Below, piece by piece: positions 5,571 through 45,813 of a stretch of 64,000 nt of DNA. The number at the start of each line of letters is the position of its first letter. Positions within the stretch are counted from its first letter, which is position 1. This DNA comes from Polaromonas sp. (GTDB taxonomy: Bacteria > Pseudomonadota > Gammaproteobacteria > Burkholderiales > Burkholderiaceae_C). Location: NCBI RefSeq assembly GCF_043778355.1, contig NZ_JAYWHI010000031.1, positions 60,202-124,201 on the forward strand, given 5' to 3'. The notes under the pieces are model-generated. The model saw only the letters and a program-made list of their open reading frames with translations. It did no database searches and had not been told where the DNA came from. Both the position numbers and the translations under genes were made by a program.

Positions 5571-6454
5571 GGACTGCGCTTTGAAAACTTCGGATCGAGC
5601 ACATCGCGCAGCCCATCGCCCAGCAGGTTGATGGCCAGTACGGTGGGCACCAGGAACAGCGCCGGGAACAGCACATTGCCAGGGTACTGGGTGAACTGCA
5701 CCCGGCCCTCGGCCATGATGTTGCCCCAGGTCGGGATGTCGGCGGGCAGCCCCAAACCGAGAAAACTCAGGATCGCCTCGGTCAACACGGCCGATGCGGC
5801 CACAAACGTGCCCTGGACAATCAGTGGCGCCATGGCGTTCGGCAGGATGTGCCGCCACAGAATCACCGGGGTCGGCGTCGCCAGCGCGCGTGCGGCTTCC
5901 ACAAACGGCTCCTCACGCAGCGTCAGCACCATCGAACGCACCAGGCGCGTGACACGCGGAATCTCCGGGATCGCGATCGCCACCACCACGGTCCAAAGTT
6001 GCGCGCCCAACGCGGCCACCAGCGCGATCGCCAGCAGGATCGCCGGAATCGCCATCAGCCCGTCCATGAAACGCATCAGCACGGCGTCGACAATACGAAA
6101 GTAACCCGCCAGCATGCCCAGCAGAGCGCCGACCCCAATCGCCACAACAGCGGTGAAAGCCGCCACCAGCAGCGACGTGCGCGTGCCGTAGATCACCCGG
6201 CTGAAAATGTCGCGGCCAAAGTTGTCGGCGCCCATCCAGAAAGTGTGTGGGACCACCGTGCCGTCGCGTTGCGCAAAGTCGCCGCGCACGCCTGCAGCGG
6301 TATTGATGTGGGCCGAATCCATGGCAGCAGGGTCTACCGTCCCCAGCACTGGCGCCAGCGCGGCCAGCAGCAATAGCACGCCAATCACACCGGCGCCGAA
6401 GCGAAACGCACTGTTGCCCCAGAGCCTTCGCCAGAGAAGTAGCCCGGCGCCCAT
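5567..6454 (-). CDS. Peptide ABC transporter permease (DppC/OppC-like)
   Basis: WMGADNFGRDIFSR, EAARALA (EAA loop), ILPNAMAP; start trimmed to ATG 6454. Confidence 0.9.
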   Translation of the reverse strand: MGAGLLLWRRLWGNSAFRFGAGVIGVLLLLAALAPVLGTVDPAAMDSAHINTAAGVRGDFAQRDGTVVPHTFWMGADNFGRDIFSRVIYGTRTSLLVAAFTAVVAIGVGALLGMLAGYFRIVDAVLMRFMDGLMAIPAILLAIALVAALGAQLWTVVVAIAIPEIPRVTRLVRSMVLTLREEPFVEAARALATPTPVILWRHILPNAMAPLIVQGTFVAASAVLTEAILSFLGLGLPADIPTWGNIMAEGRVQFTQYPGNVLFPALFLVPTVLAINLLGDGLRDVLDPKFSKRSP

Positions 6455-9240: not shown

Positions 9241-9954
9241 TCAGATCACACCCAGCCAGCAGGCGCGTTGAATCGCCGACATCTTGTTGTCCACTCTGAG
9301 TTTGGCCATGGCGTTGGCCATGTGGTAATTGACCGTGCGCTCGGTGCAGCGCAGGCGCTCGCCGGTCTGTCGGGCGGTCAGGCCTTCGAAAGCAAGCGCC
9401 AGGCATTCGCTCTCGCGCGGACTGAGCGGACTGCTGGCAGCGGCCAAGGTGCGTTTGAACAGGGGCCAGATGTTGAGCGCCGACCAGACCAGCGCGGCAG
9501 CTTCAGCCCGGTCATGGAACTGGCGAGGACTGAACATGAAACATTCGAAGGCGCGTCCAGAAGGCAGGGGAAACTCAACCCGCACCACGCTCTGAAACCC
9601 GTGGGCCAGCCACAACAGACGCCAGCGGTCGCCCCCCGTGTCTGAATTGCCAATGTGCTGCCAGGCCACCATCGGTGCATCGGACTCCCGCCAGGGCGCG
9701 CCAAAGTCCTGGCTTTCGGCGAGGGCCAGCGCTGGCTCCTGCAGGCGCGGGGGGTGGACCGCTGCCACCACCCGGTCCTGGCGCTGCCCGAAAGGGTCAG
9801 GCCCCAGGACAACGACGGCCTCGACCGCATAGTCGCGCAGGGCAGAAATCCAGTCGGCCAGCATGCTGTCCAGCGCAAGACTGTCAAAGTTGACAGGTTG
9901 GCGCACTTTCAGTTTTCCCCCAGAATTGCGCCCATGTGTGGAGAACTGTCCCAA
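9241..9954 (-). CDS. LuxR-family transcriptional regulator with divergent autoinducer-binding-like N-domain
   Basis: C-terminal HTH LSPRESECLALAFEG...TERTVNYHMANAMAKL; N-domain retains P-x-x-W and HG; start uncertain (9954 TTG, 9906 GTG or 9864 ATG). Confidence 0.85.
   Translation of the reverse strand: MGQFSTHGRNSGGKLKVRQPVNFDSLALDSMLADWISALRDYAVEAVVVLGPDPFGQRQDRVVAAVHPPRLQEPALALAESQDFGAPWRESDAPMVAWQHIGNSDTGGDRWRLLWLAHGFQSVVRVEFPLPSGRAFECFMFSPRQFHDRAEAAALVWSALNIWPLFKRTLAAASSPLSPRESECLALAFEGLTARQTGERLRCTERTVNYHMANAMAKLRVDNKMSAIQRACWLGVI
9879..9898. promoter_or_regulatory. lux-box-like palindrome at luxR 5' end
   Basis: Minus strand ACCTGTCAACTTTGACAGTC, CTGT-N8-ACAG spacing; 15/20 identical to the site upstream of cqsA. 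Confidence 0.5.
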
Positions 9955-10201
9955 AATTTATTCATGATCCAGAATTTCAGATTGCCGGGCAGAACCAGAT
10001 GACAAATTCATTGGCCTTGGCGCTTGACGGACATAGTGACGCGAGGAAAGGGCCGGTTTACAGCTTGACCCCATCGGAAACAAGCGCGTCCTATTTTGCA
10101 CCCGCCACAGTATCGTCGCCGGTAGCCGAAACAGAAACGCTGCATGCATTCGCGAAAGCGGGTGTTCGTACAAGATTGATCATTGACCGAGCGTCCGTGC
10201 C

Positions 10202-11638
10202 GTGGTCTCGGCGAAGGGGATGCCGGGCGGGCAGCGCCCCCACAACGATGACAATTCGCCAGCAAAGCCTAGCCCGACCGCCTGTGTGAACAAACCCGCA
10301 TCCTCCTGCCCCGGCACCACCCATACTCTGCGGGAGGTCCAGACGTCAACGACGCTGCGGGGATCGGCCTGGAGCCGCGTCGTGCGCTGGCTCAGGGAAG
10401 AAGTCATCACCTCGCCGCTGGTGCCGGTACTTCATCCCACGCCCCTGCGTATCAAGGGTCTGGGCTTGTTCACATTGATCGGGCACCCGCTGTTCTGGTG
10501 GGTCTGGTCCGTGTTGCTGCCCCAGCCCTATGAAAATCTGGGTCTCCGGATTTTTACGAGCTCATTGGGACTGCTTTTAATCAGCAACCGGATCAGCCGC
10601 CAGCCGTCGAGTGCTCTTGCCGGCCATGTCTTCAGTGCGGTGATCTGGTTTGAGTTGCCATTTCTTTTTTCCTACATGTACCTTTGCAATGGGGGCAACA
10701 CGGCATGGCTGTCGAGCATGGCGGCAATGATCCTGATCTACTATTTTGTGACGGACTGGCGCATTGCCACCTTGGGTCTGGCTGCAGCAGCCCTGCTGGC
10801 AGGCGCCGTCTTCTGGTTATGGGGTCCCGCCGTGCCACCCATGACGACAACCACCCTGCTGACTGGCGCGATGGTGATTTTTTTCTGTGTGAGCATGGGC
10901 CTCCTGCTGGGCTTGTCTTCGGCCAACCTCCGGCGCGAGCAGTTGAACCACACGCTGACGACCATGGGTATCATGGCGCACGAATTGCGTACCCCCCTGG
11001 CCACCATGTCGCTGATAGGAGACGCTTTGAGAAATGAAGCCCGGCAGCCCAGGAACGCAGGGAGCGATCAACGGTTTGAGCAACTCGTGATCAGACTGCA
11101 CAGTATGGTGCGTACCATGAACCAGCAAATCGACACTCAAATCGTCAACGCGGGCCTGCAGCGCCTGCCGACCCATAAGGAAACAGTGACGGCCTCTGAA
11201 CTGCTGCGCAATGTGGTCAGGGACTATCCCTACCGCAATTCGCGGGAACGGGACAGCGTCGTGCTGGTGCTTCGCAAGGACTTTTCCTTCGAGTCGTCCG
11301 GTCGGCTTTTTACCCAGGTCATCAACAACCTCCTGAAGAATGCTTTTCGTTCTCTGGCGGCAGGCAGTTCTTCCCCCAATCCGGGCGATTTGCGTATCGA
11401 AGTCGGCGTTCTCAACGGCTCCGGTCGAATTTTCATCGAGGATCAGGGGGTTGGCATCGCACCTGAATTGCAGACCCGGATTTTTGAGCCCTTTTTTTCC
11501 ACCGATTACGGTACCGGTCACGGTCTGGGACTGGCCTTTTGCCAGCAGGTCGTGCAAAGCGCTCATGGGAGCATCCGGGTCAAATCGGAACCCGGCCGCG
11601 GCGCCCTGTTCATCATTGAGCTTCCAGTCCTGACCTAG
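10202..11638 (+). CDS. cqsS: CqsS/LqsS-type membrane sensor histidine kinase (alpha-hydroxyketone receptor, no receiver domain)
   Basis: About 6 hydrophobic segments with PQPYENLGLR (CqsS-type PQxYENLGLR), H-box AHELRTPL, N-box NLLKNA, G-boxes DQGVGI and GHGLGL; start uncertain (10202-10220 or later). Confidence 0.85.
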   Translation: MVSAKGMPGGQRPHNDDNSPAKPSPTACVNKPASSCPGTTHTLREVQTSTTLRGSAWSRVVRWLREEVITSPLVPVLHPTPLRIKGLGLFTLIGHPLFWWVWSVLLPQPYENLGLRIFTSSLGLLLISNRISRQPSSALAGHVFSAVIWFELPFLFSYMYLCNGGNTAWLSSMAAMILIYYFVTDWRIATLGLAAAALLAGAVFWLWGPAVPPMTTTTLLTGAMVIFFCVSMGLLLGLSSANLRREQLNHTLTTMGIMAHELRTPLATMSLIGDALRNEARQPRNAGSDQRFEQLVIRLHSMVRTMNQQIDTQIVNAGLQRLPTHKETVTASELLRNVVRDYPYRNSRERDSVVLVLRKDFSFESSGRLFTQVINNLLKNAFRSLAAGSSSPNPGDLRIEVGVLNGSGRIFIEDQGVGIAPELQTRIFEPFFSTDYGTGHGLGLAFCQQVVQSAHGSIRVKSEPGRGALFIIELPVLT

Positions 11639-11653
11639 AAGAATGCGCTTCCT

Positions 11654-12631
11654 ATGAGTTTTCCTCTTTTTCGCCGTCCGGGGACGGTCGTTTTTCTGGA
11701 TGATGATCAGGCCTATCTGGAAATGCTGGCCATGGTGCTGCCGGAGCAATGGCATATCCGGTTCTATCTGCGGCCACAGGTTTGCATCAACCAGTTGCAG
11801 CAGGAGCCTCCGCTGTGGGAGGCAGACGCCTGGGCGCAGCAGGAGATCATTGACAACTGGCGCGCAGGCAGGCCGCTGATACCGCAAATCCTGCGCTACT
11901 GGGCGACCGAGCCGGGGCGTTTTGGGCTGACCCAGGTATGTGTCTTTGACTACGCGATGCCCGGTATGGACGGCCTGCAGGCACTGGGCGAACTCACCGA
12001 CTGGCCAGGGGGACGGGTGCTGCTGACGGGTCAAGCCGACGAACATGTAGCGGTCAGTGCCTTCAACCGGGGACTGATTGACCAGTTCATCGCCAAGCAG
12101 ACGCCCGATATTTCCCAGTACCTCATCGCGGTGGTCCAACGCATGATTGACAGGCCGCAAATGCGCCATTCCCAAATCTGGCGAACCGCGCTCAGTCAAC
12201 CGCAGCACGCCTTGCTACAGGTGCCCTCGGTCGCGCGACAACTTGGCAGTCTGGCCAGCGCCCACTGGGTGGAGCATGTGGTTATTGGCCAGCCTTTCGG
12301 CATTTTGGGCATGGATGCAGAAGGGCGTGTCAGCTGGCTGCAACTGGAATCTGCTGCAGACCTGGCGGAACTGGCGGAGCTGGCTGAAATCCAGGGCGTG
12401 GGCGCTGCGGAGGCGGCAGATATCCGGGATGGCCGGACACTGGTGGATCTGGAGCTCCAGCAGGCCTTGGGGCAGTTAGGCCCTGCCCGGCGGGCTCAGG
12501 CGTTTTCAATCGGCCATGAAGGTTCGTTGCTGGCCGCATTGTTCCCGGTTGACTCCTCCGCAAACCCACCCGGACTGACAGGCTACGGCCAGTGGCTCAG
12601 ACAACACGGCCACCGCACAGTCCAGGACTAG
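11654..12631 (+). CDS. lqsR: LqsR-like response regulator
   Basis: VVFLDDD, FDYAMPGMDG phospho-acceptor, LLTGQADE, AFNRGLIDQFIAK as in LqsR; no HTH output domain; 15 bp downstream of the kinase. Confidence 0.8.
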   Translation: MSFPLFRRPGTVVFLDDDQAYLEMLAMVLPEQWHIRFYLRPQVCINQLQQEPPLWEADAWAQQEIIDNWRAGRPLIPQILRYWATEPGRFGLTQVCVFDYAMPGMDGLQALGELTDWPGGRVLLTGQADEHVAVSAFNRGLIDQFIAKQTPDISQYLIAVVQRMIDRPQMRHSQIWRTALSQPQHALLQVPSVARQLGSLASAHWVEHVVIGQPFGILGMDAEGRVSWLQLESAADLAELAELAEIQGVGAAEAADIRDGRTLVDLELQQALGQLGPARRAQAFSIGHEGSLLAALFPVDSSANPPGLTGYGQWLRQHGHRTVQD

Positions 12632-13914
12632 GATTTTCTGCCGCCATCCTGATTGCCAGCCACTTCGGCAGCTCGTGCACGTCGGGCGATTGGCCAGTCC
12701 CAGGGCTTCACCACAAGCGCCACCTCACGCGTTGCTGCCTCGACGTGGTCGAGTTCGGCGTCGGTCAGGGCCGCGTGCAGCGTGAGCCGCACCATCGCGC
12801 GGTTGCGGCTGGTGGCGGGCGCGCAGAAGATCGAACCGACCACACCGCGTGATTCCAACTCGTCGCGCAACACCATGGCGGCCGCCTCCGTGCCTGCTTC
12901 GAGCGCAATGATCTGTTCGGTGCCGTGGTGAATGGGAAAACCCGAATCGGCAAGACTCTGGCGCAAACGCGCGGTGTTCGCATGCAGGCGCTGGCGCGCC
13001 TCGTCACTGTCGCGGATCACGCCCAGGGTCGCTGACAAACCCGCGATCTCGTGGGGCAGCAGGGAAGAACTGAAAATATTCGGAAAACTTGAAATGAGCG
13101 TGTAGTAGCGCATGCTGGCCGGCGCCGTAAAAAACCCGGCCCTGCCGGCGAAAGCCTTGGCAAGACTTGCGGTAATGAAGTGCACCCGATGCGTCACGCC
13201 AAGCTCCGCGCACAATCCGGCACCCCGAGGTCCATGCGTGCCCAGCGAATGCGACTCATCGACCACGATCATACTGTGATGACGCTCCACCACCTCCAGG
13301 ATGTCCAGCAACGGGCACAAGGCCCCCGTGGTGCTGTACACCGAGTCGACCACAACAACACCGGGGCCGTGACGCTGCAACATGCGGTCCAGGTGTTCGG
13401 GGTCGTTGTGGCGGAACGCGTGGGCTGGCGCCTTTGCGGCACGGGCGCCTTCCCACAAGGACATGTGCGCCAATCCGTCGAGGTAGACCGGCGTGTCCTC
13501 GTCCGCGATGATCTGCAGCAACCCCATGTTGGCCGTGTAGCCAGACTGGCAGAGGTAGCCGTCCTCCTTGCCAAGCCAATGCGACAGATCAGCCTCAAAC
13601 GCATGCACAGGATGGCCGCCCAGAAGAAATACGCCGGACTGCACAACAGCCTCGCTGTCCTGGCGCAGCGCAGTAATCTGCGCCCCAACAATATCCGGAT
13701 GACCGGTGACGTTGAGGTAGTCGTTTCCGTCCAGACGCACCGCATCAGGTCCCACTGCACGGCCGTGCAGCACAAATTTGCCGCCCCACTGGTGCTCCCA
13801 TCGGGGGGCAAAGTCGCGAGTGATACGTTGCTGCAAATGTGCGGACAACGCGGGCTCGACCGCTGGTTTTATTGAAACATCCTGGGCAGAGTGATCAAGA
13901 AGAGGTGTTGGCAT
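12628..13914 (-). CDS. cqsA: CqsA/LqsA-type alpha-hydroxyketone autoinducer synthase (PLP-dependent, AONS-like fold)
   Basis: CQSGYTAN, FRHND, VVDSVYST, VDESHSLGTHG and PLP-lysine motif TASLAKAF match CqsA rather than BioF; convergent with lqsR. Confidence 0.9.
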   Translation of the reverse strand: MPTPLLDHSAQDVSIKPAVEPALSAHLQQRITRDFAPRWEHQWGGKFVLHGRAVGPDAVRLDGNDYLNVTGHPDIVGAQITALRQDSEAVVQSGVFLLGGHPVHAFEADLSHWLGKEDGYLCQSGYTANMGLLQIIADEDTPVYLDGLAHMSLWEGARAAKAPAHAFRHNDPEHLDRMLQRHGPGVVVVDSVYSTTGALCPLLDILEVVERHHSMIVVDESHSLGTHGPRGAGLCAELGVTHRVHFITASLAKAFAGRAGFFTAPASMRYYTLISSFPNIFSSSLLPHEIAGLSATLGVIRDSDEARQRLHANTARLRQSLADSGFPIHHGTEQIIALEAGTEAAAMVLRDELESRGVVGSIFCAPATSRNRAMVRLTLHAALTDAELDHVEAATREVALVVKPWDWPIARRARAAEVAGNQDGGRKS

Positions 13915-13973
13915 GGTGTTACCGTGTGAAGAAGTAACACCATTGAAAAGGAAATTGACAATTTCGCCTCCGT

Positions 13974-13999
13974 GACCCCTGTCAACATTAACAGGGGTC
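13974..13999. promoter_or_regulatory. lux-box-like palindrome upstream of cqsA
   Basis: GACCCCTGT-CAACATTA-ACAGGGGTC, 9-bp perfect arms, CCTGT-N8-ACAGG geometry, centred about 72 bp upstream of the cqsA ATG. Confidence 0.55.
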
Positions 14000-14061: not shown

Positions 14062-15372
14062 TCAGGCGGTTTGTGTGCCTCGGGTCAGACTCAAAGCGGC
14101 CAACGCCATGATTTTTGCGCTGTCCACCAGTTCCTGTATGCCCACATATTCGTCCGGCTGATGCGCCAGATCCAGGATGCCGGGACCGTAGGCAATACAG
14201 GCGTCAAGCTTACCGGTGCGCACAATGTGTTTCTGATCGTAAGTGCCGGGGCTGGAGATGTAGCTGGCCTCGCGGCCCAGCACGCGGGCAATCGCTCGGG
14301 CAGTCGCCAGCACCACCGGCGCATCCTTTGGCGTGGCGGTTGGCACAAAACTCATGATGTCCTTGATGCCGTAGTTGAAACCCGGCCGACTGCGCTTGAG
14401 CTCTTCGAGCATGGCGACGATTTCAGCTTTCACGGCCTCCAGGTTTTCTTCGGCAATGAAACGCCGATCCAGCACCGCGCGGCAGGAGTGCGCGACCACG
14501 GGTGAGGGCAGGTCGCCGGTTGGTCGGTTCAGGGCGTCCATGGCGAACCGTTGTTCGACCTGGCCACCATGCAGGCTGTTGATGTTAAGTGTGCTGACCC
14601 GAGCGCCGGAGGGCTCCACCGGCTCGGCGGTGTGGCGCTGCGACAGACGCGGCTGCAGTTGCGTTTCCAGCAGATGGATGAAAGCACTCATGTGGTTGAT
14701 GGCGCTGTCGCCCAGAAAAGGCATGGAGCCGTGGGCGATCCGCCCCAGGGTTTCAACCTCGCCCCACCAGACGCCGCGATGGCCCAGGCAGATGCGGTCC
14801 ACACCGAGCGGCTCGGGAATGATCACGTGATGCACACGTGGTTTGGAGAAGTAGCCACGCTCGGCCAGGTAACCGACGCCGGCAAACCCGCCCGACTCCT
14901 CATCCACCGTGCCGGAAATTTCCAGTGCACCGGCAAACGGCAGGCCCTCTTCCAAAATCGCCTCGCAGGCAATCACGCTGGAGGCCAGCCCGCCTTTCAT
15001 GTCGCAGGTGCCGCGTCCAAAGATCTTGCCGTCCCGGATGTCGGCGCCGAAGGGGTCGCTGCTCCAGCCGGAGCCTGCTTCGACCACATCGATGTGGCTG
15101 TTGAAATGCACACACTCGCCGCCGGGCTGGCCTTCATAACGCGCCACCACATTGATGCGTGGGTGCGAATCGCGGTCACCCGGCGCGCCAGTGGCGCGTA
15201 TGTATTCGACGGCAAAGCCGCGCCTGGCAAGCCGTTCACCAAGCAAGCGGGCACAGGCTTCGTAGGCGTCGCCGGGCGGATTCGTTGTAGGGATGCGCAC
15301 CAGGTCTTGCGTGAGGGCCACCACCTCATCGCGTTTGGACTCGATGCGTTTGAGCAGGCTGTCGTTGTTCAT
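14062..15372 (-). CDS. M20 family metallopeptidase (ArgE/DapE-like deacylase)
   Basis: HFNSHIDVV, GRGTCDMKGG, VDEESGG, IIPEP, AHQPDEY metal-binding motifs. Confidence 0.9.
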   Translation of the reverse strand: MNNDSLLKRIESKRDEVVALTQDLVRIPTTNPPGDAYEACARLLGERLARRGFAVEYIRATGAPGDRDSHPRINVVARYEGQPGGECVHFNSHIDVVEAGSGWSSDPFGADIRDGKIFGRGTCDMKGGLASSVIACEAILEEGLPFAGALEISGTVDEESGGFAGVGYLAERGYFSKPRVHHVIIPEPLGVDRICLGHRGVWWGEVETLGRIAHGSMPFLGDSAINHMSAFIHLLETQLQPRLSQRHTAEPVEPSGARVSTLNINSLHGGQVEQRFAMDALNRPTGDLPSPVVAHSCRAVLDRRFIAEENLEAVKAEIVAMLEELKRSRPGFNYGIKDIMSFVPTATPKDAPVVLATARAIARVLGREASYISSPGTYDQKHIVRTGKLDACIAYGPGILDLAHQPDEYVGIQELVDSAKIMALAALSLTRGTQTA

Positions 15373-15605: not shown

Positions 15606-16727
15606 CTAACCCTGACGCCACGGCAACCCGCGAAACCGCCAGCCACCGCGCGTGCCGCGATGGGCTTCAGCGTCCGGGTCACCTTCAAAGCCCTCAAGGA
15701 TGTTGTAGGCCTCCAGCCCCAGTTCGGTGGCGCGTTTGGCCGCAGCAATCGAGCGCACCCCGCTTCTGCACAACATCACGGCCTTGCCGCCGGCAGGCAC
15801 GGCGGCCTGCAGGCCTTCGTCGAACTGCGGATTCATGGCCATGCCCGGCCACTGCTTCCAGGCCAGCGCCACCGCACCCGGCACAAAACCGACCCATTCG
15901 CGCTCGGCATCGCTGCGTACGTCAATCAGCACGGCCTGGCCGGCCTGCCACCACTGGCAGGCCAGTTCGGGCGACACATTGCCGGCATAGCCCTGGGCGG
16001 GTTGGACCTGCAGCAAACACGCACCGTCGGCATCCTGACGGCCACTGCCCAGGCCTGAGTTCAGATTCGCCGGCAGCGCCTCGTCGATACGCGCTGGCCG
16101 CGGCAGCTTGAGCTCGGCCATGGTGGCCACGAACTCCGCCAGGCTTTTGCCGGCAATCCGCGGATTGCCGGCCCTCTCCGCAGCGATCGTCGAATGACTC
16201 CGGCCCTGATAATCGTGTCCGGGCCAGACCACGGTGTGGTCTGGCAGTGTGAACAGCCGCTGCGTGATGCTGTGATACAGCGCCTCGGCGCTGCCGGACT
16301 GGAAATCGGTACGGCCACAACCCTTGATGAGCAAGGTGTCGCCGGTAAAAAGATGCTCGCGCCAAAGATAACTGACACTTCCGGCGGTGTGGCCCGGCGT
16401 ATGTATCACCGTGATCTGCTCGCCGCCCACCCGCAGCACGTCGCCCTCCTTGAGCTGACGTGCAGCGCTTGCGATGCCGCAAGCCTCAGGCGCCGCCGTT
16501 TGCGCCCCGGTGTGCTCGGCCAGTTGCCCGGCGCTGGTGATGTGGTCGGCATGGGCGTGGGTTTCAACCGTCCACCGCAGCTTGAGCCCATGGCCTCGAA
16601 GGACGGCGAGATCGCGCTCAAGTTGTTGATCCACCGGGTCGATGATGAGCGCCTCGTGTGTTGCTGGATCGAACAGCACATAGGTGTAGGTGCTGGAAGC
16701 AGGGTCGAAGAGTTGAAGCGGTTTCAT
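15606..16727 (-). CDS. Persulfide dioxygenase (ETHE1-like MBL fold) fused to C-terminal rhodanese
   Basis: ETHAHADH, TPGHT, FTGDTLL, GCGRTDFQ, WPGHDY, then rhodanese DVRS...MLCRSGVRS; start trimmed to ATG 16727. Confidence 0.88.
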   Translation of the reverse strand: MKPLQLFDPASSTYTYVLFDPATHEALIIDPVDQQLERDLAVLRGHGLKLRWTVETHAHADHITSAGQLAEHTGAQTAAPEACGIASAARQLKEGDVLRVGGEQITVIHTPGHTAGSVSYLWREHLFTGDTLLIKGCGRTDFQSGSAEALYHSITQRLFTLPDHTVVWPGHDYQGRSHSTIAAERAGNPRIAGKSLAEFVATMAELKLPRPARIDEALPANLNSGLGSGRQDADGACLLQVQPAQGYAGNVSPELACQWWQAGQAVLIDVRSDAEREWVGFVPGAVALAWKQWPGMAMNPQFDEGLQAAVPAGGKAVMLCRSGVRSIAAAKRATELGLEAYNILEGFEGDPDAEAHRGTRGGWRFRGLPWRQG

Positions 16728-45359: not shown

Positions 45360-45437
45360 CGTGTTCGCCTTTTGTCGCCTACCATCGTGGTGCATCAACA
45401 CCAATGTAGTGCGCACTTAATTTAGATGTTGTATCTA

Positions 45438-45458
45438 CTACATTTAAAATCAATGTAG
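45438..45458. promoter_or_regulatory. Candidate operator in the divergent nicotinate promoter region
   Basis: CTACATT-N7-AATGTAG perfect inverted repeat; extra half-sites at 45403-45409 and 45551-45557; AT-rich intergenic. Confidence 0.5.
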
Positions 45459-45619
45459 CGCATGAAAATTCCCAGCGCAATAGCATTTCCACGGCAATAG
45501 CAAAATTATTTAAAAAATGTTGCGATGACTGAATTTTCATGTTGTGTTCACTACATTAGTGTGGCACATTGGCACCTGCATGAAAGATTTTCTCCGGACT
45601 TTCACCGCCAAGGACCGCT

Positions 45620-45787
45620 GTGACCCCCGTCGTAACCAACCCTCGTGTCGAAGATACCGACTGTGTCGAGATCTGCCCCGTAGACTGCTTCCGGGAAAGC
45701 CTCCCTTCCCCGGAGGCGGCACAATGGCAGGGTAAAACCGGTAAGCTTTCAAGCCTGGATCCGGCCCTGCTGGCCTTACCCCACTGA
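45620..45787 (+). pseudogene. fdxA: Internally deleted 7Fe ferredoxin (fdxA) remnant, 55 aa
   Basis: VTPVVTNPRVEDTDCVEICPVDCFRE joined directly to SLPSPEAAQWQGKTGKLSSL; AAGGA RBS; first two Cys and the whole second cluster motif missing; directly upstream of fpr. Confidence 0.75.
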
Positions 45788-45813
45788 TCACCAACTCCCA
45801 ACCTGCAATTACC

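Follow-up and report, generated by a model that had tools for sequence, protein, structure and literature searches.

We have found two matched, lux-box-like palindromes in an alpha-hydroxyketone (AHK) gene cluster of Polaromonas, one inside the 5' end of a luxR-type gene (site A) and one upstream of the autoinducer synthase gene (site B). Judged from comparison of related loci, the two sites are probably operators of the cluster's own LuxR-type regulator, with site B activating the synthase promoter and site A autorepressing luxR. If so, they tie a LuxR-type switch to hydroxyketone-type quorum sensing of the Legionella/Vibrio kind. No published description of these matched operators in an AHK cluster was found. 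The stretch of DNA analyzed, 64 kb in length, is referred to as the window.

The AHK gene cluster

By its gene content, the cluster is identified as lqsA/cqsA, lqsR and lqsS joined by a fourth, luxR-type gene, the latter being transcribed divergently from cluster genes. The following features are present:

9241-9906, minus strand: LuxR-type regulator gene (221 aa, GTG start), with an N-terminal alpha/beta ligand-binding-like domain and a C-terminal GerE/LuxR helix-turn-helix (HTH)
9955-10105, plus strand: diverged remnant of an ancestral kinase 5' end, whose frame opens at ATG 9955 and is stopped after 12 codons; it separates luxR from the present-day kinase gene
10202-11638, plus strand: LqsS/CqsS-like membrane sensor histidine kinase with HisKA and HATPase_c domains and without a receiver domain
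11654-12631, plus strand: LqsR-family response regulator with a receiver domain and a non-DNA-binding output domain
12628-13914, minus strand: cqsA/lqsA, AHK-type autoinducer synthase

The synthase scores 552.9 bits with NCBIfam NF005526, whose cut-off is 428, and its homologues are labelled CAI-1 or AHK autoinducer synthases by their sources; the original prediction of a bona fide AHK synthase is thereby borne out. The N-terminal half of the kinase is hydrophobic and its synteny is found in about 70 loci. Its start codon is uncertain, with homology to orthologues beginning at about residue 52-57. The kinase remnant was recognized by alignment with loci L001, L004, L005 and L006, and the distance from luxR to the start of kinase homology is ~440-460 nt in the window and in L024 versus ~120 nt in other Polaromonas. 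The LqsR-type protein matches PDB 6sy9_A (E=6e-18 over residues 2-248), an entry titled just 'Response regulator' that we take to be Legionella LqsR, and has a weak Response_reg match. Its gene adjoins the LuxR-type gene even where cqsA and the kinase are missing. A PLP-dependent synthase, together with a multi-pass membrane kinase and an LqsR-family regulator in conserved synteny, gives the cluster the make-up of an Lqs/Cqs system.

The LuxR-type regulator

The HTH of the regulator matches Pfam GerE (PF00196, E=1.4e-15), and its invariant residues E165, L169 and G175 are spaced as E-x3-L-x5-G, the invariant HTH residues of the LuxR family. A Pfam search at E<=0.01 gave no match to Autoind_bind (PF03472), and the regulator is therefore not a canonical LuxR receptor. 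Profile searches of NCBIfam and PDB matched essentially the HTH alone, with one TraR match (2q0o) reaching back to residue 95. The N-terminal part is not a receiver, nor can an AHL-binding domain be recognized in it. In a Foldseek search of the PDB with the AF2 model (pLDDT 85.9), ranks 1-33 were all TraR, RhlR, QscR, SdiA, LasR or CviR (E 7.6e-10 to 3.5e-5), at TM-scores of only 0.32-0.52. The regulator is accordingly predicted to have the two-domain fold of a LuxR-type quorum-sensing receptor, similar to TraR, LasR and SdiA. In the sequence, the invariant residues W72, D76, P78, W82 and G103 are spaced unlike the conserved AHL-contact residues W57, Y61, D70, P71, W85 and G113 of TraR. There is no LuxI-type gene in the five-gene neighborhood, and the regulator belongs to a small, separate family, for which 1.8 billion representatives yielded 39 clusters at E<=1e-30.

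Sequence and conservation of the palindromes

The two sites are as follows:

9879-9898, site A: 20-bp lux-box-like palindrome, read on the minus strand as ACCTGTCAACTTTGACAGTC, with the core CTGTCAACTTTGACAG at 9881-9896
13977-13996, site B: 20-bp palindrome CCCTGTCAACATTAACAGGG, with its core at 13979-13994

Both palindromes are present where the original prediction had placed them and, counted by hand, have 15 of 20 positions in common. The core of site A, CTGTCAA-N2-TTGACAG, is a perfect 7-2-7 inverted repeat, and that of site B, CTGTCAA-N2-TTAACAG, is a 7-2-7 repeat with one mismatch. The CTGT-N8-ACAG geometry that had been claimed for them holds for both, as do the CTG-N10-CAG core and the length (18-22 bp) of a lux-box-type dyad.

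A pattern scan of the 64-kb window returned sites A and B alone, two matches against 0.39 expected, in a circular comparison for which the pattern was built from the sites themselves. In a non-circular test, the window contained 24 matching 7-2-7 inverted-repeat pairs compared with ~14 in Markov shuffles, and the A/B pair is therefore unremarkable when judged by the window alone. The 20-mer by itself is unspecific, with 121 matches in metagenomes, mostly in unrelated contexts. The weight given here to the likeness of the two sites comes from conservation, not from window statistics.

Eighty orthologous loci from Polaromonas, Ramlibacter, Caenimonas and other Comamonadaceae were compared. The phylogenetic footprinting that had been suggested earlier came out in favor of both palindromes: site A was found in 80/80 loci, and site B, as CCCTGTCA-N4-TGACAGGG, in all 63 loci reaching the synthase 5' flank (counted among genome loci as CTGTCA-N4-TGACAG with at most one mismatch, up to 260 nt ahead of the synthase gene). 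In this family consensus the arms are invariant and the central N4 varies freely, a pattern that would fit a dimeric HTH site. The outer C:G pairs of site B are retained in 100/93/82% of loci. Each ~16-kb locus has two such sites only, each at the 5' end of a cluster gene, and the palindromes and the regulator gene strictly co-occur in the 80 genome loci, down to 65% identity. A related palindrome, the TCAAT box and the hairpin still precede cqsA in more distant cassettes, with regulators of just 42-47% identity. Where loci have the LuxR/LqsR pair without cqsA, the same palindrome-TTCAAT module precedes a PF14518 enzyme gene.

Site A lies within the luxR-type coding sequence

The original prediction had site A at the luxR 5' end. 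It is indeed near the gene start, but it is not upstream of the gene, lying instead inside the coding sequence at codons 4-9, where its core encodes P-V-N-F-D-S. The start of the gene was set at GTG 9906 because homologues of 221-222 aa open with M-x-x-PVNFDS. The palindrome is found in codons 4-9 of 81/81 luxR-type genes, in all of which the codons CCT, AAC, TTT and GAC are fixed, with GTY and AGY each in 80/80; codon entropy at other conserved residues of the gene is 0.8-1.8 bits. The fixed codons include two that are rare gene-wide, CCT (14%) and TTT (38%), and GTG is never used at Val5 though it makes up 53% gene-wide. These patterns show selection on site A at the nucleotide level, acting through synonymous positions. 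In L204, where the regulator is 47% identical, the PANFES codons are non-palindromic and, in their place, a CTGTAG-N4-TGACAG palindrome spans the ATG; what is retained there is the DNA site rather than the peptide.

Upstream of site A lies a candidate promoter element:

9930-9935, minus strand: position of the ATTGTC box, invariant in the family and here mutated to ATGGGC

In the kinase direction the box has the sequence GACAAT; in the luxR direction it appears as TGnTATTGT, a putative extended -10 of luxR. Site A would then lie ~35-45 nt past the putative start of luxR transcription, where a bound regulator would most likely exert negative autoregulation as a roadblock. In some lineages the site might in addition act on the divergent kinase/response-regulator operon. 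The mutation of the putative luxR -10 box in this window counts against the operator reading.

Site B and the cqsA promoter

Two further features lie downstream of site B, at the synthase 5' end:

13942-13947, minus strand: TTCAAT box within the conserved CTTCAATGG, candidate -10 of the cqsA promoter
13912-13944, minus strand: cqsA 5' leader hairpin, AAUGGUGUUAC...GUAACACCAUG, whose 3' arm sequesters the Shine-Dalgarno (SD) sequence and the first two bases, AU, of the start codon

Site B is centered at 13986.5, 72.5 nt from the ATG at 13914, in agreement with the ~72 bp given originally, and its perfect complementarity extends to 13974-13999 (GACCCCTGT..ACAGGGGTC). TTCAAT begins 32 nt past the core. 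Measured from the core, its CAAT part has an offset of 33 in 58/68 loci, and five further loci deviate by no more than one base; the full TTCAAT is present in 62 of the 63 loci with a CAAT box at that position, and three sRNA-like metagenome loci have (A/C)ACAAT at equal spacing from the palindrome. TTCAAT is the sole conserved -10-like element. Site B has the location, in the promoter region of the synthase gene, and the conservation with the cassette that characterize a lux-box-type operator. A search of RNA-seq runs found none that contains the sequence.

Under the proposed mechanism, a dimer of the GerE-HTH protein would recognize CCCTGTCA-N4-TGACAGGG through the conserved CTGTCA arms and make no contact with the four bases in the middle. 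At site B it would sit just upstream of a -35-less promoter with the weak, conserved -10 TTCAAT and switch on the synthase gene, which would create a positive feedback loop on the AHK signal. The regulator would be controlled by the AHK itself or by the LqsR-type response regulator as its partner. Two features of the promoter count against the operator reading. With TTCAAT as the -10, the center of site B is predicted at about -51.5, a departure from the classic class II position of -42.5, which would apply only with a transcription start at the base of the leader hairpin, on the leading A of AATGG. The hairpin itself (-13.8 kcal/mol, z=-6.0 in the window) has a mean z of -3.0 across 51 non-redundant loci, with arm sequences that differ between lineages, and its conservation implies that some transcripts begin upstream of the TTCAAT-derived start.

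The right arm of site B contains TTGACA, a perfect -35, which makes it possible that the LuxR-type protein is instead an EsaR/ExpR-like repressor that binds free of signal, blocks a TTGACA promoter and is released by the signal. Most copies of site B have TTGACA in their right arm, Polaromonas loci have ATTGTC or TTTGTC 17 nt downstream, from which a start would take in the whole leader hairpin, and the position of site A within a coding sequence suits repression. However, this candidate -10 at +17 to +22 is unconserved between genera while TTCAAT is conserved, CTGACA replaces TTGACA in many orthologues, and strict spacing to a weak, -35-less box would be typical of activator-dependent promoters. 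We regard repression at site B as unlikely.

Site B could also function mainly as an RNA hairpin, a terminator or insulator for the co-oriented upstream gene, with only incidental likeness to site A. In the window it folds into a GC-rich stem of 11 bp, the M20-cqsA intergenic RNA has z=-4.6, and the upstream gene is co-oriented in both genera (M20 here, secA in Ramlibacter). At least six additional complementary flank pairs, differing in sequence, are found in 12/68 loci, and in L022-L024 a T-rich tract comes after a long stem. A T-tract is nonetheless absent from 64/68 loci, including the window; the arm sequence itself is invariant, not merely its pairing, while the loop varies; the core is shared with site A in the luxR coding sequence, where a terminator would do harm; and the palindrome keeps its fixed spacing to TTCAAT and accompanies cqsA or the PF14518 gene regardless of the gene upstream. 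A hairpin role as the main explanation of site B is thus quite improbable. Termination of the M20 gene, which the original prediction had itself named as a counter-reading, is unsupported as the main role, since secA may replace M20 and 64/68 loci lack the T-tract. No Rho-independent terminator was called at the site B hairpin, and at least five T in the 8 nt after the stem were present in 4/68 loci.

The C-to-T variants of site B all fall on the arm where G:U pairing survives in the sense RNA, and this, together with the extra flank pairing, hints at an additional role as an RNA hairpin. The same one-sided changes would be in keeping with an RNA-binding protein acting on CUGUCA-N4-UGACAG stem-loops in the luxR mRNA and a long cqsA leader; equally, since binding by the LuxR-type protein is something we infer, a different factor from outside the cluster might occupy the DNA. 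Against either, the palindromes strictly co-occur with the regulator in the 80 genome loci and related ones are kept by its 42-47% identical relatives, the asymmetry of site A is accounted for by coding constraint, and a variable loop on an invariant stem would be the reverse of usual RNA-protein recognition. Such binding partners are very unlikely in our view, and the cluster's own LuxR-type regulator is the preferred one.

Comparison with known systems

The lux box of Vibrio fischeri reads ACCTGTAGGATCGTACAGGT. Like it and the tra, las/rhl and cep boxes, the sites described here are 20-bp dyads with a CTG-N10-CAG core and outer CCTGT...ACAGG, and like the luxI loop, the cluster has a site upstream of an autoinducer synthase gene, a GerE-HTH regulator and a divergent regulator gene. 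It differs in that the synthase is a PLP-dependent CqsA/LqsA rather than LuxI, the regulator is without detectable PF03472 and belongs to its own small family, one putative operator is within the regulator coding sequence, and the predicted box center is at about -51.5 rather than -42.5, unless the base of the hairpin is where transcription starts. The cluster additionally includes a membrane kinase and a regulator of the LqsR type.

Dimers of GerE-family proteins of the NarL type bind inverted heptamers 2 bp apart (7-2-7), and repressors of the EsaR/ExpR type have an operator placed to repress the regulator's own gene. The present sites share the 7-2-7 arrangement and the operator at the regulator's own gene. 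Unlike in these systems, neither ligand-released repression nor a phosphorylated DNA-binding protein is indicated here, and the N-terminal domain, as stated above, is no receiver and no recognizable AHL-binding domain.

In Janthinobacterium, the JAI-1 motif TTGA-N6/7-TCAA occurs 80-339 bp upstream of the start codons at JQS-regulated promoters, including that of jqsA (PMC5080296). It is likewise a palindrome upstream of an AHK synthase gene in a beta-proteobacterial CqsA-type system. The sequence and geometry here are different, CTGTCA-N4-TGACAG with an inner TCAA-N2-TTGA, and for JAI-1 no LuxR-type cluster gene is described (PMC5080296).

In gene content the cluster resembles Lqs of Legionella (LqsA-LqsR-LqsS/LqsT) and CqsA/CqsS of Vibrio, which share the synthase and the receiver-less, multi-pass kinase, and an LqsR-family regulator in the cluster. 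Homologous Lqs/Cqs clusters in Polaromonas have been mentioned (PMC3376566), and the output mechanism of LqsR/PhcX is given as unknown (PMC10653808). Published descriptions of Lqs/Cqs clusters include neither a DNA-binding partner of the LuxR type nor a defined operator, whereas the present cluster is conserved together with a fourth gene and a matched pair of putative operators.

Cluster and regulator

The genes concerned occupy the following positions in the window:

9241-9906, minus strand: GerE/LuxR HTH protein of 221 aa (luxR-type gene)
10202-11638, plus strand: membrane histidine kinase without a receiver domain
11654-12631, plus strand: response regulator of 325 aa
12628-13914, minus strand: PLP-dependent aminotransferase-fold enzyme (cqsA; NCBIfam NF005526)
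14062-15372, minus strand: M20 peptidase

The synthase scored 552.9 bits against NF005526 ('alpha-hydroxyketone-type quorum-sensing autoinducer synthase'; cut-off, 428 bits) and the response regulator matched PDB 6sy9 (E=6e-18), which we take to be the Legionella LqsR structure. Judged by these two matches, the cluster is of the Lqs/Cqs type with a fourth, luxR-type gene. Homologues of the fourth gene product are 221-222 aa long with the N-terminus M-x-x-PVNFDS, which sets the start of the luxR-type gene in the window at GTG 9906 and makes site A, the first of the two palindromes described below, intragenic. Scanning genomes with the regulator alignment identified 80 loci (65-91% identity) in Polaromonas, Ramlibacter, Caenimonas and other Comamonadaceae, most of them in the order cqsA(+) / lqsR(-) / lqsS(-) / luxR-type(+).

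No autoinducer-binding domain was matched in the regulator by Pfam, and PDB and NCBIfam profile searches matched little outside its HTH, so membership in the canonical AHL-LuxR family was rejected at the sequence level. The AlphaFold model (pLDDT 85.9) predicts an N-terminal alpha/beta domain of five strands, followed by a long linker helix and an HTH of four helices. In a Foldseek search of this model against the PDB, ranks 1-33 were all TraR, RhlR, QscR, SdiA, LasR or CviR (E from 7.6e-10 to 3.5e-5), with the low TM-scores (0.32-0.52) expected if domain orientation differs. The family is small: a search of 1.8 billion representatives gave 39 clusters at E<=1e-30. The cluster encodes no other DNA-binding protein, and the assignment of this regulator as the likely reader of both palindromes is well supported but indirect.

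The two palindromes

Both 20-mers were found where the original prediction had placed them, site A at 9879-9898 on the minus strand (ACCTGTCAACTTTGACAGTC) and site B at 13977-13996 upstream of cqsA (CCCTGTCAACATTAACAGGG), and the 15/20 positions it counted as common to them were confirmed. Each has a 7-2-7 inverted repeat, CTGTCAA-NN-TTGACAG, as its core, without mismatch in site A and with one in site B. A pattern scan of the 64-kb window allowing <=2 mismatches returned sites A and B as sole matches, although this test is circular. The non-circular count of matching 7-2-7 inverted-repeat pairs, 24 in the window versus ~14 in Markov-shuffled sequence, is not significant, so the pair is not shown to exceed chance from the window alone. 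There is no convincing third site in the window, and each ~16-kb locus likewise carries just the two. The las/rhl-box-like palindrome CTGCCA-N4-TGGCAG at 15944-15961 (CCTGCCACCACTGGCAGG) was rejected as an extra site, having two mismatches to the cluster motif, lying inside an ORF and occurring as often as expected by chance.

Two other repeats were observed. A second perfect palindrome (7-1-7; GAAATTGACAATTTC) at 13951-13965, between site B and the TTCAAT box described below, holds a TTGTCA half-site-like element, and its region is conserved in Polaromonas only. Two similar imperfect inverted repeats, TGTTGT-N4-ACTACA, at 45427-45442 and 45540-45555 (113 nt apart) sit in the divergent intergenic region 45417-45813 and may be the operator pair of an unrelated local regulator.

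Site B

Phylogenetic footprinting bore out site B, as CTGTCA-N4-TGACAG with at most one mismatch was present in 63/63 loci whose contig extends 260 nt upstream of the synthase. Their consensus, CCCTGTCA-N4-TGACAGGG, has invariant arms and a freely varying center of four bases; the three outer C:G pairs are retained in 100, 93 and 82% of loci. Invariant arms around an unconstrained center give the look of a dimeric HTH site, from which an RNA hairpin read through its loop would differ.

Among the findings that the prediction itself had named as undoing it was that site B acts as a terminator of the M20 gene. In its broader form, site B would be mainly an RNA hairpin, a terminator or insulator of the co-oriented gene upstream, with an incidental resemblance to site A. 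Although site B does form a strong hairpin, no terminator was called there and a T-rich tract follows the stem in only 4/68 loci. The M20-cqsA intergenic RNA fold has z=-4.6, yet it is sequence rather than pairing that is conserved at site B. In each genus the gene upstream (M20 in Polaromonas, secA in Ramlibacter) runs in the same direction as cqsA, but the element accompanies the synthase promoter and its core recurs inside the luxR coding sequence. We thus regard the terminator explanation as improbable. Extra flank complementarity at site B in 12/68 loci, together with C-to-T changes limited to the G:U-compatible arm, would nevertheless be compatible with an additional, insulating function in some lineages.

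In three loci (L029, L057 and L071) cqsA is deleted and the palindrome still directly follows secA; L057 keeps, besides the palindrome, the TTCAAT box, the leader hairpin and the opening codons of cqsA. These strains may sense the signal without producing it.

Site A within the luxR-type gene

Site A had been predicted at or within the luxR 5' end; its position at that end holds, and it is more precisely within the coding sequence, at codons 4-9 (P-V-N-F-D-S). Among 81 distinct orthologous genes, these six codons are CCT (81/81), GTY (80/80), AAC (81/81), TTT (81/81), GAC (81/81) and AGY (80/80). Gene-wide, CCT accounts for 14% of Pro codons and TTT for 38% of Phe codons, GTG makes up 53% of Val codons, and codon entropy at other conserved residues is 0.8-1.8 bits. 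Selection at the nucleotide level acts on site A. In L204, a distant relative whose regulator is 47% identical, the PANFES codons are non-palindromic and CTGTAG-ATGT-TGACAG straddles the start codon; other distant members retain CCT ATC AAC TTT GAC AGT or CCT GTT AAC TTT CAC AGT. Comparison of these sequences indicates that the conserved entity at the 5' end of the gene is a DNA site and not merely a peptide.

An ATTGTC box upstream of luxR is invariant across the family. Its luxR-strand sequence is TGnTATTGT, an extended -10, in loci of the Ramlibacter type and CATTGT in those of Polaromonas; the kinase strand has GACAAT. The box is spaced bimodally from site A, with 45 loci at 34-35 nt (33-36) and 31 at 42-45 nt. 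The simplest reading is that the box is the luxR promoter with site A at ~+35 to +45, a position that suggests autorepression by roadblock. Site A as an activator site for the divergent kinase operon was rejected because of the bimodal spacing and the extended -10 on the luxR strand, although such activation is possible in the 34-35 nt group.

The window has ATGGGC, a mutated form, in place of this box. Between luxR and the present kinase gene, 150 bp survive of the decayed 5' end of an older kinase; its ATG is at 9955 and a stop follows 12 codons later. The luxR-kinase intergenic region (9920-10367) is ~340 nt longer than in most Polaromonas, an arrangement also seen in locus L024. Compared with loci L001-L023, the kinase, response regulator and synthase of the window are only 67-83% identical, whereas LuxR, M20 and an ABC binding protein are 78-97% identical, which suggests that the sensor/synthase module has been exchanged in a pherotype-like diversification.

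Candidate promoter and leader of cqsA

The sequence CTTCAATGG is conserved at a fixed distance after the site B core. In 58/68 loci CAAT has an offset of 33, from which five others deviate by one base at most, and 62/63 loci with a CAAT box there have TTCAAT, the candidate -10; there is no -35-like hexamer 17 bp upstream of it. A leader hairpin directly follows CTTCAATGG (box plus hairpin, 13912-13947, minus strand); the arrangement is common to all loci with cqsA, and the hairpin sequesters the ribosome-binding region and start codon of the gene. Its arms differ by lineage (GGUGUUAC/GUAACACC, GCACC/GGUGC, GGGACACC/GGUGUCCC and GGAACUC/GAGUUCC) with pairing kept, the 3' arm always holds the Shine-Dalgarno region, and AAUGG pairs with CCAUG at the start codon. 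The window leader folds at -13.8 kcal/mol (z=-6.0), and the mean z over 51 non-redundant loci is -3.0. Structure was judged from folds of the individual sequences and from counts of register, because RNAalifold gave none for a MAFFT alignment of the cqsA leaders in which the variable loops were misaligned.

If TTCAAT is the -10, the palindrome would be centered at ~-51.5 with the start site inside the hairpin's 5' arm, so that transcripts made under the regulator would lack this inhibitory arm and read-through from the gene upstream would be translationally silent. If the start is instead the first A of AATGG, the center would fall exactly at -42.5. Public runs containing the window sequence are metagenome DNA only.

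Occurrence of the module elsewhere

Palindrome, box and hairpin also precede a PF14518 iron-containing redox enzyme in loci that have the LuxR/LqsR pair and no cqsA. In this alternative cassette (L028, L031, L033 and L041; palindrome at ~860-1830) the haem-oxygenase-like enzyme is ~240 aa long and is followed by genes for a LuxN-like hybrid kinase, a receiver-kinase fusion, and LqsR-type and LuxR-type proteins. Possibly this enzyme makes another signal and is controlled in the same way.

Three metagenome loci (L127 2931-3100, L192 42-211 and L195 697-866) carry, in order, the palindrome, exactly 33 nt, (A/C)ACAAT, CTGTCAC, an untranslated stretch of ~70-90 nt and a terminator-like hairpin; seven T in a row come after the hairpin in L127 and L192. 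The element lies beside an M16-peptidase-like gene, which the short L192 contig does not show upstream, and is bordered on the other side by an rsmD-like gene at least in L192. It resembles a small RNA gene with a promoter of this type. Rfam contained no family for the window region or these loci. Both the PF14518 loci and the three sRNA-like loci support nnCAAT as the -10.

A metagenome scan for the 20-mer gave at least 121 matches, most in unrelated contexts, where CCCTGTCACTTGTGACAGGG recurs. Among the matches listed, ~17 adjoin Lqs-type cluster genes, most before cqsA, and the three sRNA-like loci are also present. Given the many matches in unrelated contexts, the 20-mer is not diagnostic and cannot by itself define a regulon. 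On the metagenome contigs L108 (9536) and L140 (499), the 20-mer lies among arrays of CTGTCAA/TTGACAG half-sites (gttgacagtaCCCTGTCAATCTTGACAGGGtactgtcaag), and L150 has a tandem pair of TGTCACCGGTGACA at 6056; these contexts are apparently unrelated.

Discussion

Sites A and B are under functional constraint. Control of the lux-box/LuxR type is probably wired into the alpha-hydroxyketone system here. We consider it possible, though doubtful, that LqsR-family regulators reach DNA through this LuxR-type protein as their missing output, or that it is a cytoplasmic hydroxyketone receptor. On such a scheme the membrane kinase and the LqsR-type protein would gate the LuxR-fold factor by protein-protein contact; the factor would drive the synthase gene via the lux-box-like operator, restrain itself through the operator within its own codons and possibly control a small RNA. 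The LuxR/LqsR pair and operator module would be portable, standing in some Ramlibacter before the haem-oxygenase-like iron enzyme and LuxN-like hybrid kinase, a placement that suggests a second signal chemistry under the same control logic.

The Lqs-type cluster of many Comamonadaceae and distant relatives has a LuxR-fold factor and two matched operators, which could provide a concrete output route and an autoinduction loop for hydroxyketone signaling. Site A is a clean case of a regulatory site imposed upon coding sequence. In the communities of glacier-fed streams, freshwater and soil, where the carriers are abundant, signaling of this kind is unstudied. Cultivable carriers include Polaromonas eurypsychrophila CGMCC 1.15322, Caenimonas koreensis DSM 17982 and Ramlibacter terrae H242.

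No DNA-binding domain is present in the LqsR family, which includes Legionella LqsR and Ralstonia PhcX, and how its members reach DNA is reported to be unknown (PMC10653808). Lqs clusters have been mentioned in Polaromonas without a LuxR-type gene or operator (PMC3376566), and we found no description in the literature of a LuxR-type gene with matched operators in an Lqs-type cluster. Surveys of LuxR solos require PF03472 (PMC10134790) and would therefore miss this regulator family. The cluster palindrome was rejected as the Janthinobacterium JAI-1 motif, which is a different palindrome (PMC5080296). With the lux box of V. fischeri, the cluster palindrome has CCTGT...ACAGG and the CTG-N10-CAG geometry in common.
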